From a bacterium (lineage in GTDB: Bacteria > UBA10199 > 2-02-FULL-44-16 > DYJF01), in the NCBI GenBank assembly GCA_041739675.1, contig JBGSNL010000074.1, positions 1 to 21,684 of the forward strand: a stretch of 21,684 nt of DNA. The letters run 5' to 3'. The translations under genes were made by a program, and so were the position numbers. This document shows positions 3,270 through 21,684 of the stretch, one piece after another (positions within the stretch are counted from its first letter, which is position 1; every line of letters begins with the position of its first letter). The notes under the pieces were generated by a model. The model did no database searches. It saw nothing but the letters and a program-made list of their open reading frames with translations, and was not told where the DNA came from.

Positions 3270-3595
3270 GTGAAGCAAGATTGAAACATCTACGCATGAC
3301 CCCGCGCAAGATGATGGCGGTCGCGACCTATATCAGGGGCAAGAACGTCCAGGCGGCGATCGACTATCTCACGTTCTGCAGGCGCCGTGCTGCAGGTCCG
3401 CTTTTGAAGCTTGTGAAGTCCGCAGTCGCAAACGCGTCCCACAAGGGGGGCGTCGACGTGGACAATTTATATATCAAGGAGCTTCTGATCGGTAAGGGAC
3501 CGACGATGCGCAGGTGGATGCCTCGCGCGCGCGGAATGGCGACGCCGATTCTCAAACGCACAAGCCATGTGAAGCTCACTTTGGCCGAGAAGTAG
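3266..3595 (+). CDS. rplV: 50S ribosomal protein L22 (true start ATG 3266, ATGA overlap with rpsS)
   Basis: [15 protein letters not shown]...[10 protein letters not shown]...[13 protein letters not shown]...KRTSH; the upstream part of the 3074 ORF lies inside rpsS. Confidence 0.97.
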
Positions 3596-5837: not shown

Positions 5838-5845
5838 GATAAATT

Positions 5846-6562
5846 ATGGCAGAAGAGAAAAAACAAAAGCAGGCCGAAGGAAAAGCGGAAGGCAAACCGA
5901 AGAAGGATAAGCCGCAGCAGCCGAAGGGCGGAAAGCCGGAAAAGCACGCCAAGGGCGAAGAGAAGGCCGAGCCTAAAGAAAAGGTGAAGAAGGAAAAACG
6001 GCCCGTCGTTCCGAGACAGCCCTCTCCTTATGAGATGAGCTACGTGCAGAAATGCGTGCCGGCTCTCATAGAGAAGTTCGGCTACAAGAACCGCATGCAG
6101 GTGCCCAAGATCCAGAAGATCGTCATCAACACCTGCCTCAAAGAGGCGCTTCAGGATCACAAATTACTTGAGACCGCGGCCGAAGAGATCGCTACGATAG
6201 CGGGCCAGAGGCCGGTGCTCACAAGGTCGAAAAAATCGATCGCGAACTTCAAGCTCCGTGCCGGTGTCACCATCGGCGCGTGCATCACGCTCCGCGGCAG
6301 AAATATGTACGAATTTTTGAACCGCCTCGTGAACGTGGCGCTGCCCAGGGTGCGCGACTTCAAAGGCGTCTCTCCGAAATCGTTCGACGGAAGAGGCAAC
6401 TACACGCTGGGGCTGACAGAACAGATCATATTCCCCGAGATCAACTTTGACAAAGTTACGAAGGTCAACGGGATGAACATAACTTTTGTGACGACGGCGA
6501 CCACGGACGAAGAGGGCAAGACACTCTTGCAGCTCATGGGCATGCCCTTCAGGAGCGCATAA
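5846..6562 (+). CDS. rplE: 50S ribosomal protein L5 with ~55-aa Lys/Glu/Pro-rich N-terminal extension
   Basis: [51 protein letters not shown]. Confidence 0.98.
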
Positions 6563-6563
6563 G

Positions 6564-6749
6564 ATGGCAAAGACATCCCTAAGGATCAAGGCGACGAGGA
6601 AACCGAAATTCAAGGTCAGGGCCTATCACAGATGCCCGCGTTGCGGACGCTCACGCGGTTATTTCAGAAAATTCGATCTGTGCCGCCTGTGCTTCAGACA
6701 GATGGCCCTGAACGGAGAGCTTCCCGGTGTCGTGAAATCAAGCTGGTAG
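6564..6749 (+). CDS. rpsN: 30S ribosomal protein S14, short zinc-binding (type Z) form
   Basis: 61 aa; RCPRCGR and LCRLCFR CxxC pairs; LPGVVKSSW. Confidence 0.98.
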
Positions 6750-6765
6750 AAGGAGTATTTATATT

Positions 6766-7161
6766 ATGATGACAGATCCAATAGCTGACTTGCTCACAAG
6801 AATAAGAAACGGTCTCCATGCCAAACAGGCTGAGGTCGTCGTTCCGGCTTCCAAGCTCAAGGAGCGGATTGCAAAGATAATGTCGGAAGAGGGGTTCTTG
6901 AGGGAAGTCACAACCCTTGGAGAGGGTAAAAATAAATCGATAGTAATAAAGCTCCGCTACACGCAGGCGAAAAAGCCCGTGATCTCCGAGATCGCAAGGA
7001 TCAGCAAAATAGGCAGACGCGTCTACATCACGACAGGCGAGATCAGGTCGGTGAAGCGCGGTCGTGGAATTGCGATCCTGTCGACATCGAAGGGCGTAAT
7101 GAAGGATCAGGATGCGAAGAAGCACGGCGTTGGCGGCGAACTTTTGTGCCAGATTTGGTAG
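6766..7161 (+). CDS. rpsH: 30S ribosomal protein S8
   Basis: MTDPIADLLTRIRNG, GIAILSTSKGVM, GVGGELLCQIW; AAGGAG SD. Confidence 0.99.
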   Translation: MMTDPIADLLTRIRNGLHAKQAEVVVPASKLKERIAKIMSEEGFLREVTTLGEGKNKSIVIKLRYTQAKKPVISEIARISKIGRRVYITTGEIRSVKRGRGIAILSTSKGVMKDQDAKKHGVGGELLCQIW

Positions 7162-15489: not shown

Positions 15490-15989
15490 AGAAAAGATAT
15501 CTGATTGCAATAGTGATCGCCGGCATCATTTTGATAGTGATGTCGGCGATCCATTTTTTTGAGCGTCCCAGAACTGGCGACGTTGCCCCCGCCTTCACGC
15601 TCAAGGACACGGCGGGCGGACAGGTGTCGCTCGACAGCGCGAAGGGAAAGCTTGTGCTATTGCACTTCTGGTCGACATGGTGCGGCGCCTGCCTCAGTGA
15701 AATTCCAACGATCGGGAAGCTCCACGATGAGTTCAAGGGCAAGGGAGTCGCCGTACTGACGGTTCTTGTGGACGACGACGGAAGAGATCTTGCGGACATA
15801 GCAAGGAGAACTCCGATCAACTATCCGGTCCTTCTCGATCCCAAAGGGGAAACGGCGGATTCATATCAGGTATGGGGAGTGCCTGAAACGTTCATTATCG
15901 ACAGGGCCGGCGTCATCCTCGATCGCACTGCCGCGACGTTGAACTACGCCGAAACGAAAAAATTCCTCGAAGCCCGACTCGCCCGCTAG
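15486..15989 (+). CDS. TlpA/ResA-like membrane-anchored thiol-disulfide oxidoreductase (redoxin)
   Basis: N-terminal hydrophobic anchor; APAFTL; VLLHFWSTWCGAC (WCxxC); GVPETFIIDR cis-Pro loop; GTGA overlap with rplQ stop. Confidence 0.9.
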   Translation: MKKRYLIAIVIAGIILIVMSAIHFFERPRTGDVAPAFTLKDTAGGQVSLDSAKGKLVLLHFWSTWCGACLSEIPTIGKLHDEFKGKGVAVLTVLVDDDGRDLADIARRTPINYPVLLDPKGETADSYQVWGVPETFIIDRAGVILDRTAATLNYAETKKFLEARLAR

Positions 15990-16642
15990 CTTGTCTCCAT
16001 CCTCACGTAGATCTCTTTTGCGATCTCGCGATCTACCGCGAACTGTGTCTCGCCCAGCTGGAAAAGATGGGAAGGGAAGCTTGAAAGTAGTCTTATCCGC
16101 GCGCCCGGGGCCAGCCCCATCGACAGCATCATCTGCGCGCGTTTGGGGTCGGCCGTGTTGAGATAGGCCACGTGGCCGCCCTGTCCCGGCTTCAATGCGG
16201 ATAGCGACGAGACCGCTTGTGCCGCAACTTTCAACTGCTCCTTGCAGCATTTTCCCGGCGGTATCGGGCGTCCGTGGGGGCAGGTCTTGGGATGGCCCAG
16301 AAGGGTGCAGACGTTCTGGTCGATCCCCTTGTGGAGATGGTGCTCGAACTGGCAGGCAGTTTCGTGGATCATCTCTTTCCTGACTTGCAAGACGTCGGTT
16401 AGAAGCCTCTCTGCCAGACGGTGTCTTCTCACGGCGTCGCTGGCCAGTTGCTCTCCCTTCTTTGTCATTTTCACTTCGCCTTCGCCGCAGCGTTCGACTA
16501 TCTTGCGGTCGAGGAGCGCTTTCAACATTGCGGTGTCGGGCATTTCCCGGAGCCATGAGAGTTTCAGACAGTCCGTGTTTTTCTCCTCGTACGCGACCCA
16601 GAGCGCTTCCAAAATTTCTTCCATCTGTTCTGAAATCTGCAT
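15986..16642 (-). CDS. DtxR/MntR-family metal-binding protein with C-terminal FeoA (SH3-like) domain
   Basis: RRHRLAERLL, IHETACQFEH, GHPKTCPHGRPIP; C-terminal LSALKPGQGG...LSMGLAPGARI FeoA pattern; AAAGGCGG SD. Confidence 0.9.
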   Translation of the reverse strand: MQISEQMEEILEALWVAYEEKNTDCLKLSWLREMPDTAMLKALLDRKIVERCGEGEVKMTKKGEQLASDAVRRHRLAERLLTDVLQVRKEMIHETACQFEHHLHKGIDQNVCTLLGHPKTCPHGRPIPPGKCCKEQLKVAAQAVSSLSALKPGQGGHVAYLNTADPKRAQMMLSMGLAPGARIRLLSSFPSHLFQLGETQFAVDREIAKEIYVRMETS

Positions 16643-16655
16643 GGAGCCGCCTTTC

Positions 16656-18425
16656 TTATAAATTTATGTCGAAGAGTCTCAATGCGCTATTCAGGACGAA
16701 ACCCGCCGCAAACGCGAAGACGAGTATGAACGTCGATATCGCCGCCGCGATTTTCCATCCGCGCTCCTTTATCGTGATGAGAAGCTGCGCTATGCACGGC
16801 AAAAAAAGAGTCAGTACCACGACCGATATCAGGATCTGATTGCCGCTCAAAACGTTCGTGCGGGCCAAATCGTAAAGGCCGGCCGCGCCGTAGTCGCGCC
16901 TGAAAAAACCGAAGAGAAAGACCGGGGCCGTGGGCTCGGGCAAACCCATGTATGAGAGTGGCTTTGCAAGGAACCCGACAACGGTCTCAAAGACTCCCGT
17001 CAGCCGGCCGAGCCATATGAGTATGCTGGCGATGATGAAAAGCGGAACGATCTCTTTGAAATACCACACCATGCGGACATACGTTTTAACGAGGATGTTT
17101 TTGAGCTTGGGCAGCCGCATAGGAGGTACTTCGATGATGAAGGTGGGGCGCGTGCCCGGCATTATCTTCGCCAACATCGTGCCCGTGAGACCGAAGATCG
17201 CGGCGATGATGATCGCCCACAGCGCGAGGATTTTGGGCCTTCCCGCAAGAAGACCCAGAATGACCCCCATCTGCGCGGAGCATGGGATGGTCAGCGAAAG
17301 GAGGAGGGTGGCGATGATCCTTTCGCGTTTCGTTGCGAGCGTCCGCACGACCATAGTTGCCATAGTGTCGCAGCCCAGCCCCAGGACCATGGGGATCACG
17401 GCGCGGCCGGAAAGTCCTATCCGCTTGAAGATTGAATCCAAAAGGTAGGCAAGCCGCGGCAGATAGCCCGAATCCTCGATGACCGCGAATACGAGGAAGA
17501 ACAGACCCACGATCGGGAGAATAATGCACAGGGCGTATCTGACGCCGAGGGTCAAAATTCCGTACTCTCCCGCGAAAAGATCCCTCAGCCACGGCCATTT
17601 AGCATATGTGTAGACGATCTCAGTGAGCCATGGGGTGATGCGGTGCTGGTAGGCGTTCTCCAGAAAACCCACAAATGTGCCCGCGCCCAAGGACCCCACG
17701 ATCTTGTAAAGGCCCACGTAGAGCACGGCTGCAAGGATCAAAAACCCGCTGACCGGAGAGGTGAGAAGTTTGTCCAGACGGGAGAGCCCCTTTTGCTTTT
17801 CCGTTTTCCGAGTTACGCCGATCGCAATCTCGGAGGCCTTCGTGTACCAGCTCTTCATCATGCGGTCGGTGTAGGGCGGGAACTCCTCAGCGGTCGGAGG
17901 CCAGGCGGTCGCGGCCCCGGTCAACGCTGTTTTTATTTGATCTACAAGACGGCCGGTCCCCTGATTATTCACTGCTACGGTGGCGGCAATGGGGAGATTC
18001 AGTTTTTCAGAGAGGGCGGAAATGTCAATTGCCGCGCCCATGAGGGTAAGCTCGTCGTACATGTTCAAGGCGAGGATCACCGGGCGGTTTGTCATTTGCA
18101 GCTGGAAGGTGAGGGGAAGGCTGCGCTCCAGATTTTTTGCGTCGATGACGTGAACAATGACGCTGTGGCTCTCCTTCTTTATGATCCCCAGCGTGACACG
18201 CTCCTCCTCCGTCACGGGGTAGATGCTGTATAGGCCGGGGGTGTCGATCACCTCGCAGCTTTTGCCCCCAATCTTCATGTGTCCGCGTGAAACCTCAACT
18301 GTCGTGCCGGGATAGTTGGAGACCGTTGCGTACCTTCCCGTCAGAAGGCCGAATATAACGCTCTTGCCGACATTTGGGCTACCTACGAGGATTATCTTTG
18401 GGTTTGCACTTCCTGCAGTATCCAT
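16656..18425 (-). CDS. feoB: Ferrous iron transporter FeoB (compact, ~589 aa; likely start ATG 18425)
   Basis: G1 GSPNVGKS, G2 VSNYPGTTV, G3 DTPG, G4 NMYD; EDSGYLPR, GLGC, IPCSAQ, LFLPC gate motifs. Confidence 0.95.
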   Translation of the reverse strand: MDTAGSANPKIILVGSPNVGKSVIFGLLTGRYATVSNYPGTTVEVSRGHMKIGGKSCEVIDTPGLYSIYPVTEEERVTLGIIKKESHSVIVHVIDAKNLERSLPLTFQLQMTNRPVILALNMYDELTLMGAAIDISALSEKLNLPIAATVAVNNQGTGRLVDQIKTALTGAATAWPPTAEEFPPYTDRMMKSWYTKASEIAIGVTRKTEKQKGLSRLDKLLTSPVSGFLILAAVLYVGLYKIVGSLGAGTFVGFLENAYQHRITPWLTEIVYTYAKWPWLRDLFAGEYGILTLGVRYALCIILPIVGLFFLVFAVIEDSGYLPRLAYLLDSIFKRIGLSGRAVIPMVLGLGCDTMATMVVRTLATKRERIIATLLLSLTIPCSAQMGVILGLLAGRPKILALWAIIIAAIFGLTGTMLAKIMPGTRPTFIIEVPPMRLPKLKNILVKTYVRMVWYFKEIVPLFIIASILIWLGRLTGVFETVVGFLAKPLSYMGLPEPTAPVFLFGFFRRDYGAAGLYDLARTNVLSGNQILISVVVLTLFLPCIAQLLITIKERGWKIAAAISTFILVFAFAAGFVLNSALRLFDINL

Positions 18426-18804
18426 AGATCTCAAGTTTATGTGACGTGATGGAAAAGTCGTGCAGCGCGGCCACATGCCTCTGCATCTCCTCAATTTTTG
18501 GATTCACGAATTCGAACAGCCCTCCGCACTTGACGCAAATGAGATGATCGTGATGCTTCTTCACGCCGATGTACTCGTATCTGGTGAATCCGTCGTGGAA
18601 CTTCTTTGATTCGGCGATGCCCGATTGCTCGAGGAGCTTCAGGGCCCTCCAGACCGTGGTGTAACCGATTTTGGGATCGATCTTTTTCACGCGCTCGTAG
18701 AGCTCATCCACGGTCATGTGCCCGGAGGCGGCGGTGAAAGCCTCCAGGACCGCATTCCTCCTCTTGCTGCTCTTTGAAGCGAGGCCTTTGAGATCTTCTT
18801 TCAT
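18379..18804 (-). CDS. fur: Fur-family transcriptional repressor
   Basis: IGYTTVWRALKLL, RYE, HHDHLICVKCG, HKLEIYGYCRKC. Confidence 0.93.
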   Translation of the reverse strand: MKEDLKGLASKSSKRRNAVLEAFTAASGHMTVDELYERVKKIDPKIGYTTVWRALKLLEQSGIAESKKFHDGFTRYEYIGVKKHHDHLICVKCGGLFEFVNPKIEEMQRHVAALHDFSITSHKLEIYGYCRKCKPKDNPRR

Positions 18805-18919: not shown

Positions 18920-18932
18920 GAGGAGGCAGATG

Positions 18933-20585
18933 ATGGAACCCATTCACGCCCCGCGGGGAACGAAACTCACATGCAAAGGCTGGGTGCAGGAAGCGGCGAT
19001 GAGGATGCTGATGAACAACCTCGATGCCGAGGTAGCGGAGCGCCCTGAAGAGCTGGTCGTCTACGGCGGGCGCGGCAAGGCGGCGCGTGACTGGAAATCA
19101 TATAATCTCATCATAGAAACGTTGAAGAAGCTCACCGATAACGAAACCCTTCTTGTCCAGTCTGGCAAGCCCGTGGGCGTTTTAGACAGCCATCCCGATG
19201 CCCCGCGCGTTATCATCGCCAACTCGAACCTTGTGGGCAAATGGGCCACGTGGGAGTACTTCTGGGAGCTGGAGAAAAAGGGGCTCATGATGTACGGCCA
19301 GATGACGGCCGGTTCGTGGATATATATAGGAACGCAAGGGATCCTTCAGGGGACATACGAGACCTTCGCCTCCGCAGGGAAGAAACACTACAAGGGCGAC
19401 TTGACTGGCAGATGGATCCTCTCCGCCGGACTTGGCGGAATGGGAGGGGCGCAACCCTTGGCGGCCACAATGAACGGGGCGGTTTTCTTAGGGATTGAGG
19501 TGGATCAGGAGAGAATCGATAAAAGGCTCAAAACCAAGTACTTAGACGTGCAAGCTAAAGATTTAGATGATGCTTTAAAGCTCATCGATAAGGCATTGAA
19601 AAATAAGCGGTCTTTGTCGATCGGCCTCTGCGCCAATGCGGCGGACATATATCCTGAACTTATAAAGCGCGGGATAAAGCCGGATCTGGTCACCGACCAG
19701 ACCTCGGCCCATGATCCTCTCAATGGTTATGTCCCGAACCGGATGACTCTTTCACAGGCGATAGAGCTCAGGAAGAAGGATCCGCAGGCATATCTGAAAG
19801 AGTCTTACCGTGCGATGGGAGAGCATGTAGAAGCCATGATCGCGATGTGCAAGGCGGGAATTCCGGTCTTCGATTACGGAAACAATATCCGTGCGCAGGC
19901 GATGGAGCATGCTGGCGTGAAAGACGCAATGATCTTCCCCGGTTTCGTGCCTGCCTATATCAGGCCGCTATTCTGCGAAGGGAAGGGCCCATTCCGTTGG
20001 GTGGCGCTGTCAGGGGAGCCCTCCGATATTTTGGAGACCGATCGGGCGATAATGAATCTCTTCCCCGACAACGAACCCTTGAAGCGCTGGCTCAAGATGG
20101 CGCAAGAGAAGGTAAAATTTCAGGGTCTGCCCGCGCGCATCTGCTGGCTGGGATATGGCGAGCGTGAAAAGGCGGGGCTTGCGTTCAACGAACTTGTGAG
20201 AAAGGGCAAAGTGAAGGCGCCGATTGTAATAGGGCGCGATCATTTAGACTGTGGCTCGGTCGCATCCCCAATGCGCGAAACGGAAGCGATGAAAGACGGA
20301 AGCGATGCGGTAGCGGACTGGCCGATCCTCAATGCGCTGATCAACGCGGTAAACGGGGCATCGTGGGTAAGTTTCCATCAGGGCGGAGGAGTGGGAATGG
20401 GATATTCGCTCCATGCGGGGCAAGTAATAGTAGCGGATGGAACCGATGAGGCGGCAAAACGGATCGAACGAGTCTTACGAAGCGATCCAGCAATGGGGAT
20501 CTTGCGCCACGCAGACGCCGGCTACGAAGAAGCGATCACGGTGGCAAAAGAGCGGCACGTCAAAATCCCGGGGCTGACGTACTAG
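18933..20585 (+). CDS. hutU: Urocanate hydratase (start ATG 18933 or 18930)
   Basis: [71 protein letters not shown] spacing favours 18933. Confidence 0.98.
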
Positions 20586-20590
20586 AACCG

Positions 20591-20706
20591 AATCTTAATC
20601 GTAATCCTAATCGCTCTTCGCAGTTATCAGAACATAGTTCCAGCTCTAGCTTAAGTTCCAGATCATAAGATGACGTGGAAGAGCGATTAAGATTAAGACA
20701 ATGATT
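20591..20706. repeat. Hexamer-periodic hairpin element, copy A
   Basis: (AATCNN)x4-tcttc left arm; inner (AGNTNN)x5; right arm gaagagcgattaagattaagacaatgatt (24/29 complementary to left arm, inner 12 perfect). Confidence 0.9.
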
Positions 20707-21228
20707 ATGAACAAAAACGCAATTCTCAGTGCATGCGCGGTTGGATTGATGATCGGGGTTGCAGGGCTGATAAACCTCATCGGGAGAGTGCGCAAGCTGA
20801 TCAAAGAGAGTATAGAATGCGTGCTGCCGGTGGTACCTAATCAAAAATTTGAATTCAGTTCGCCGGGAGAAAAATGTCTTCATCTCCAGGGCCCGCGGTT
20901 TACGACCGCATTTTTTGGGGTCAAATTCGCGATCAAAGATATTGCGACGGGAGAAGAGATCGCGCTAAGGCCGATAATATTCAGAATGGTAACAAGCGGG
21001 ATATCGAGAGCGCGGATATTTACGCATAGATGTATGGTCACGCATGCGGGACGGTATGAACTCGTGATATCGGGAATCAGAGAAGGAGCTGATTACGCGG
21101 ATTGCAATATTATTTTTACGAGGCCATATCGCGCAACGGCGATTCTTCTGATCCTTGGACTTGTATTCACGGGAATGCTGACGATAGCGAGCGTAGTATT
21201 CGGGATTATGGCAATTATCGAATCCTAA
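20701..21228 (+). CDS. Hypothetical membrane protein (N- and C-terminal TM helices, beta-rich middle); start 20701 or 20707
   Basis: 175-aa ORF with hydrophobic ILSACAVGLMIGVAGLINLI and AILLILGLVFTGMLTIASVVFGIMAII; exactly fills the space between the repeats; no clear SD. Confidence 0.7.
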   Translation: MIMNKNAILSACAVGLMIGVAGLINLIGRVRKLIKESIECVLPVVPNQKFEFSSPGEKCLHLQGPRFTTAFFGVKFAIKDIATGEEIALRPIIFRMVTSGISRARIFTHRCMVTHAGRYELVISGIREGADYADCNIIFTRPYRATAILLILGLVFTGMLTIASVVFGIMAIIES

Positions 21229-21327
21229 TCGTAATCTTAATCATAATCCTAATCGCTCTTCGCAGTTCTAAGATCAAAGTTCCAGATCTAGCTTAAGTTC
21301 CAGATCATAGATCAGAGATTAAGATTA
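21221..21327. repeat. Hexamer-periodic hairpin element, copy B
   Basis: (AATCNN)x6-tcttc...; 21233-21309 is 71/77 identical to 20591-20667; shortened right arm agagattaagatta. Confidence 0.9.
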
Positions 21328-21660
21328 TCTCCGGAGCCGCATGATCATGGCATATGATACGCGGAGCTCATCTTTGATTTCATCGATGAGCGTGGCCGTG
21401 ATATAGCCGTAAGCGCAGATGATATCTAATGCTGAAGCCGTTTCCGCGATGGAGGCAAGCGAGATATCAAAGAACCGGTTCCTCTCCTTTGTTGAGCGCC
21501 TGCCGTTGCCCTCCGATAGATTCAATATGGCGCTGCTGAATGCCCTATTGAGCTGATCTTCCAGATAATAAGTGCCCTTGGGCAGTTGCTCAATCAGCGC
21601 TGGCAACTTTCTTGCGACACCTAGCAACACTACATAGCATTTCAGTTTTTGGTGATTCAT
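21325..21660 (-). CDS. Four helix bundle protein (23S rRNA-IVP / TIGR02436-like, Avd structural relative)
   Basis: LEDQLNRAFSSAILNLSEGNGRRSTKERNRFFDISLASIAE matches the family pattern L.DQ..RA..S...N..EG.GR.S.KE..RF..I...S..E; AAGGAGG SD at 21672-21666. Confidence 0.88.
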   Translation of the reverse strand: MNHQKLKCYVVLLGVARKLPALIEQLPKGTYYLEDQLNRAFSSAILNLSEGNGRRSTKERNRFFDISLASIAETASALDIICAYGYITATLIDEIKDELRVSYAMIMRLRR

Positions 21661-21684
21661 GGAATCCTCCTTGTTGTTTTTGTG

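Follow-up and report, generated by a model that had tools for sequence, protein, structure and literature searches.

Repeats downstream of hutU as probable end junctions of a paired four-helix-bundle gene element

Two repeats that follow the urocanate hydratase gene hutU, in a window that is the entire contig C11 (21,684 nt) of the source genome (G000, 95% complete), are best explained as end-junction repeats of a paired four-helix-bundle element. On balance, this element likely spreads by way of a circle, with the help of a host or trans-acting enzyme, and the gene lying between the repeats is probably a resident. The protein family and its single-gene form are already known; the paired form with its junctions is a new variant, and our literature search, carried out mostly outside subscription papers, retrieved no description of paired four-helix-bundle elements or of junction repeats. 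PF05635 genes are common, and their transposase-free spread is unexplained.

The hutU locus, its two repeats and the gene between them

The host gene hutU (18930..20585, + strand) is followed by repeat A (20589..20710), the middle gene (20701..21228, + strand, 173-175 aa), repeat B (21219..21327) and the four-helix-bundle gene a (21325..21660, - strand). The positions of the open reading frames and of their stop codons agree with the preliminary description, and gene a matches PF05635 (E 2.7e-17) and TIGR02436 (E 2.7e-16); a structure search related it to XCC0516 (PDB 2gsc, E 4e-6). The final 24 nt (21661..21684) are a palindrome arm containing the ribosome-binding site of gene a, and the contig ends there. 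The preliminary description overlooked that the window stops inside a palindrome and that gene a belongs to a divergent pair. At the start of contig C60 are the complementary arm of this palindrome and the partner, gene b, with hutI further along at 5845-7125, and hutU and hutI share one contig in the congeneric genome G001 (83% complete); we therefore infer that C11 joins C60. The order would then be hutU, A, middle gene, B, gene a, palindrome, gene b, accessory genes and hutI. Beyond position 21684, where further repeat copies, an integrase or a reverse transcriptase were to be looked for, this presumed join supplies gene b, and a search of G000 for reverse transcriptases (PF00078) gave no match. 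Upstream of hutU, positions 15986-18804 (- strand) encode Fur, FeoB and a DtxR/FeoA-domain regulator, an ordinary iron-uptake cluster after the ribosomal protein operon.

As previously described, A and B share a 77-nt core (20591-20667 versus 21233-21309; 92% identity, 6 mismatches) at a spacing of 642 bp; they are the only pair of long repeats in the window, and the core of A starts 5 nt past the hutU stop. Their alignment spans the whole junction apart from a 10-nt insertion in the right part of A and changes that lengthen its pairing with the left arm. The result in A is a strong hairpin (RNA z -4.5/-4.4; DNA z -3.1/-3.1, both strands). Repeat B folds weakly on the + strand and as DNA (RNA z -1.2/-2.7; DNA z -0.4/-0.4), so that the hairpin character first ascribed to both repeats holds for A only. 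Repeat B is 88% identical to the flank of a sister element on contig C72 of G000. Among the 93 class genomes searched, repeat A found matches at E<=1e-4 in G000 and G001 only; a 27-nt repeat motif had 0 matches in metagenome contigs, the Rfam scan of 20400-21684 gave two sub-threshold matches and no fitting family, and the promoter/terminator scan stayed at chance level. A contig from a public run, possibly of the source sample, is identical to positions 19000-21300 (0 differences).

The middle gene is a single open reading frame tightly bounded by A and B, with its stop at 21226-28 and, in most homologues, a start corresponding to MNK at ATG 20707. It matched no Pfam or NCBIfam family, has eight relatives in databases and no confirmed match in metagenome contigs, and the branching of its tree is unresolved. 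The predicted model (pLDDT 78) has two terminal membrane-like helices around a beta-sandwich. CDC50A was considered and set aside, the best fold-search hits (E 1e-4, TM ~0.5, rmsd 7-8 A) indicating likeness of shape only, and the putative DUF3592-like cluster of the Atlas was dropped for want of Pfam support. The foreign appearance attributed to this gene turned out to be mild, with a GC3 of 0.506 versus 0.628 +/- 0.063, the 4.5th percentile of 1049 long open reading frames.

A homologue in G001 (67%) sits in the same hutU-hutI interval without A or B, preceded by a different promoter-like repeat; that of G009 lies elsewhere in the genome, unflanked by either; and contigs of a relative from two runs carry the middle gene at ~91% with no cover at A. 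Because these homologues stand without the repeats, the middle gene is probably a resident, a bystander caught between two repeat copies. The integron-like cassette proposed around it is accordingly not supported at this locus, there being also 0 attC cores on either strand of A or B, although the bracketed Fic genes of G005 (below) leave some room for such cassettes in general.

The same findings bear on another possibility, that the junction repeats are recombination sites which move accessory genes: a circle made of a junction and a passenger would integrate at a chromosomal junction to give repeat-gene-repeat, and the middle gene would be the passenger. Two of the three full repeat copies in the 1.9 Mb of G000 lie 642 bp apart and share derived bases, a local kinship that fits capture of the middle gene as well; the gene is patchily distributed (3/93 class genomes), and the accessory genes of the hutU-hutI interval differ between G000 and G001. 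In G005, moreover, two Fic genes each lie between direct repeats with junction arms, one of them within a near-perfect duplication of 148 columns (L205:1922-2069 and 3324-3472) that includes the 3' end of a host gene. Against this stand the repeat-free homologues of G001 and G009. No hutU site with one repeat and without the middle gene, the kind of empty site to be looked for, was found in the 19 genomes inspected, and no 642-nt skip, the trace of the suggested circular joint, occurred among the 15 joints listed of 24, all from contigs. G005 having 20 gene-less junction copies ("solos"), some close pairs should also arise there by chance. We consider a passenger role unlikely, though deserving of more weight than the other alternatives discussed below.

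The hutU spacer itself varies among relatives. In G001, a pair of the other family with an internal deletion directly follows the hutU stop, and in G009 a gene pair lies ~0.7 kb downstream of hutU; repeat A was seen at this position in 0 of 18 other genomes inspected, one of them uninformative. The hutU 3' spacers in L007, L008, L009, L013 and L014 contain unrelated palindromic repeats, and the place is therefore a recurrent insertion site.

Architecture and evolution of the paired element

The element measures ~0.9 kb and consists of two divergent PF05635 paralogues, a and b, around a palindrome with both ribosome-binding sites. Twenty PF05635 genes were found in G000, with intact divergent pairs on C72, C31 (two), C49, C85 and C34, six in all; the other forms are halves at contig starts or ends, a truncated pair on C53 and a single gene on C25. 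With 21 duplicate loci dropped before counting, our set comprised 52 intact pairs and another 6 truncated at the 5' end, drawn from no fewer than 15 related genomes. In the 52 intact pairs, the ATG-to-ATG spacer is 86-97 nt long (148 nt in one) with a folding energy of -33 to -114 kcal/mol, and an SD-like word, defined by a loose pattern, precedes both ATGs in 52/52. The arms of the palindrome are self-complementary (0.87) and unlike between elements (0.57). The hairpin tip is conserved and present in both orientations, and the loop flips between the sister copies C85/C34, L069/L070, L027/L028 and L116/L117, as read by eye; the automatic orientation score being crude (30/14/8), flips are claimed for these sister pairs only.

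The trees of gene a and gene b branch largely in parallel, and synonymous exceed non-synonymous codon changes in all seven sister comparisons, the weakest being 29 versus 27. Third-position likeness between a and b along the gene is 0.91/0.70/0.67/0.59 within an element versus 0.71/0.51/0.50/0.58 when lineages of the same genome are compared. Homogenised inverted-repeat arms and inverted spacers are known products of template switching (PMC8604942, in the part available), so that no special enzyme is needed for either. The two PF05635 genes are the sole content of the element, which encloses no transposase, and its flanks score as weak inverted repeats only in nearly all of 56 pairs. The pair proteins had no match in viral contigs. 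Database matches bearing pairs come from uncultured deltaproteobacteria-like MAGs; in Verrucomicrobia the matching genes occur singly, and the same hexamer arms form an inverted stem around them. Relatives have further PF05635 genes of the single kind, with inverted 6-7-mer arms of their own.

These features could be taken to mean that there is no dedicated mobility at all: the repeats would be passive products of slippage, template switching and host recombination acting on similar arms, the element would spread by duplication and horizontal transfer, and hairpins like A would be kept in the spacers of operons as RNA-processing or termination signals. Both effects described for template switching in the available text of PMC8604942, flipped loops and alike third positions of a and b, are seen here, six pairs lack their 5' parts, and no recombinase is encoded in the element. 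Such passive processes do not easily account for an arm-to-arm junction in two families with unrelated arms, or for sites cleanly occupied in one genome and vacant in another at many unrelated loci, and both reading frames are intact with an excess of synonymous changes. We regard this explanation as quite improbable.

Several further observations concern altered copies and neighbours of the pairs. In the truncated pairs of G000 (C53 10995-11115) and G007 (L064 and L066), the palindrome and the 5' parts of the genes are replaced by arm sequences, ordered as an inverted empty element. A promoter-like motif (TTGCAA-type hexamer, 17 nt, TAAAT-type) recurs in front of unrelated accessory genes, frequently right behind gene b; its sites are on C25, C31, C34, C60, C69 (two) and C85 of G000 (7 copies) and on L021, L022 and L100 of G001.

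Junction order, permuted layouts and a possible circular intermediate

The commonest layout of the element is reversed b-arm, gene b, palindrome, gene a and a-arm, examples being the second C31 pair and the C49 pair of G000. On the + strand, repeat B consists of the whole b-arm, as far as the outer end it usually has (ATCGCTTTT-like), and immediately after it the reversed a-arm from its outer end down to the stop codon of gene a, to which the repeat is still joined. Repeat A is the same junction free of genes, with b-arm hexamers and the reverse complement of the a-arm at ~20589-20695. Judged by their arm words, A and B are thus element arms joined outer end to outer end, A being a gene-less copy. 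This order cannot have come from gene deletion, which gives the opposite one, and closure of a circle yields the order of A and B.

The position of the b-arm varies in the 56 elements compared: it lies behind b only in 24, behind the a-arm only in 12, at both in 1, and 19, including the clearest both-ends case, were unclassified. The arm words were picked after viewing the flanks and the elements are related, so that p = 0.003 (background 24/5000 windows) overstates the contrast. Each family shows both positions, and sister copies within a genome differ in this respect (C72 versus the second C31 pair). Strict mutual exclusion of the two positions was discarded because of L074, which has both, and L080, which partly does. 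Direct repeats at both ends were found in 5/56 elements, with lengths of 24-105 bp and up to 105 bp at 98%, the shuffled maximum being far below. The 105-bp repeat of L069 is again a junction, of which G005 has 20 gene-less copies; these solos have one common linker, indicating a single junction event plus amplification. A solo in G001 ends in the last codons of gene a, solos also occur in G000, and none of the loci examined contained a tandem of two pairs from one family.

A repeat similar to A and B adjoins PF05635 genes at other loci, and insertion sites are filled in one congeneric genome and empty in the other. The G001 site orthologous to that of the second C31 pair of G000 lacks it, and C65 of G000 lacks both C31 pairs of G001; one site appears shared, and the orthologous flanks are just 71-77% identical, which makes target duplications unreadable. 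The preliminary description had raised a mobile repeat family associated with four-helix-bundle genes as one of its options, and this part of it is borne out: when repeat copies were sought across the genome and in relatives, they were not confined to the hutU locus and adjoined such genes elsewhere. Gene-less hairpins or tracts made of the same arm words were also noted in G000 at C34 10374-10510, C79 10091-10201 and C37 12181-12216, the first being absent at the orthologous G001 site. Two near-identical pairs have apparently swapped flanking genes between G000 (C49/C24) and G001 (C33/C62), by recombination between copies or by mis-assembly through the repeat.

Taken together, the permuted layouts, the direct repeats at both ends and the solos point to a circular intermediate, which is the simplest reading of these chromosomal arrangements in assembled contigs. 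The element would leave the chromosome as a circle, which would re-enter at varying points of the arms or recombine with a solo junction. If the two genes lying between a pair of junctions were lost, solos such as A would result, and solo junctions might then spread on their own. From these footprints one would expect a particular molecule, namely a ~0.9-kb circle closed at a defined junction; the assembled contigs showed neither such a circle nor a junction read or an excision. A class of intergenic hexamer hairpins would likewise be explained as debris of the element.

Y1/HUH enzymes of the IS200/IS605 type join right end to left end and make single-stranded DNA circles. Our best guess for the catalyst is accordingly a trans-acting Y1/HUH (RAYT-like) enzyme, with host recombination as the alternative, and the products of a and b may bind the arms or the conserved hairpin tip. 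Two Y1-family reading frames are present in G000, on C31 and C79, and others in G005; such frames occur in 23/25 genomes whether or not the element is there, and G001 (83% complete), which has the element, yielded none. Inspection by eye revealed no REP sequences flanking the Y1 reading frames of G000. This genome has only two PF00589 genes, XerD- and XerC-like by inspection, and IS110 had no match in G000, G001 or G040 and weak partial hits in G005 and G011.

A bolder form of the circular reading, which we hold doubtful, is that of a Rep-less ambisense mini-circle of ~0.9 kb that cycles between circle and chromosome with no nuclease, recombinase or reverse transcriptase of its own, its junctions carrying passengers such as Fic and the middle gene. 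Its genes would diverge from a stem-loop with a conserved tip, possibly a nicking origin, and converge on the junction. If true, this would amount to a novel way for genes to move, in which the widespread four-helix-bundle family would help to spread itself.

Movement through RNA and reverse transcription, with Avd-like proteins serving a reverse transcriptase as in diversity-generating retroelements, would be a different route, and a link to these retroelements had been suggested. PF05635 proteins and Avd are homologous in fold according to the accessible portion of PMC10053308, and the junction copies span stop codon to stop codon, which is an RNA-level landmark. However, PF00078 had no match in the high-copy genomes G000 (95% complete), G005 (99%) and G011 (96%). 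Variation among the repeats is not biased towards adenine either: across 22 junction copies the rate of change at A is 0.065, lower than the 0.13 at C and G, and the mismatches between repeats A and B have adenine in either copy rather than in one template. The suggested link is not upheld by these data, and we judge movement through RNA to be highly improbable. Avd was not hit in our structure searches, and the elements, unlike Avd systems, have neither a reverse transcriptase nor the behaviour of template and variable repeats.

Relation to known systems

The closest counterparts are the intervening sequences of 23S rRNA that contain a reading frame, as in Coxiella burnetii (S23p IVS) and Leptospira, which represent the single-gene PF05635 form (PMC4990558, available part), a form also described from 23S rRNA in the accessible text of bioRxiv 2024.02.27.582315. 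To the extent covered by PMC4990558, both kinds have a PF05635 gene, repeat arms at the borders, no transposase and a sporadic distribution. Unlike the rRNA sequences, the elements described here have two divergent paralogues around a palindrome, lie in mRNA spacers in many copies per genome, have arms that are mostly not mutually complementary, and occur as junction-order solos and permuted forms. The present copy lies not in an rRNA gene but between hutU and, by the presumed contig join, hutI; a terminal inverted-repeat stem is found in the single-gene relatives and not in the pairs.

ISPpu9, of the IS110 family, yields full and gene-less copies in one chromosome through modular minicircles, according to the available part of bioRxiv 10.1101/2025.01.17.633520. 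Within that description, the circle-based account of full and gene-less copies resembles ours; unlike ISPpu9, which encodes a transposase, our element has none, and G000 is without an IS110 match. For the same reason the element does not qualify as an autonomous insertion sequence, which encodes its transposase.

REPINs and BIMEs, which are associated with RAYT, are small hairpin-rich non-autonomous units in intergenic spacers. The dispersed gene-less copies with presence/absence polymorphism are REPIN- or MITE-like, whereas the element differs from REPINs, BIMEs and IS200/IS605 in carrying its own conserved gene pair. In integron cassettes, a reading frame is tightly bounded by attC repeats with RYYYAAC/GTTRRRY cores. 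The middle gene is similarly a single reading frame between two related repeats; unlike a cassette, it lacks such cores at its borders, B is a poor hairpin, there is no array, and a homologue stands unflanked elsewhere.

Finally, a PF05635 gene with inverted heptamer arms was observed in G008 (L048:1196-2008, - strand) inside an RNase P RNA gene. Rfam assigned the host RNA to RF00010 with 231.8 bits, which makes this copy an intervening sequence in rnpB.
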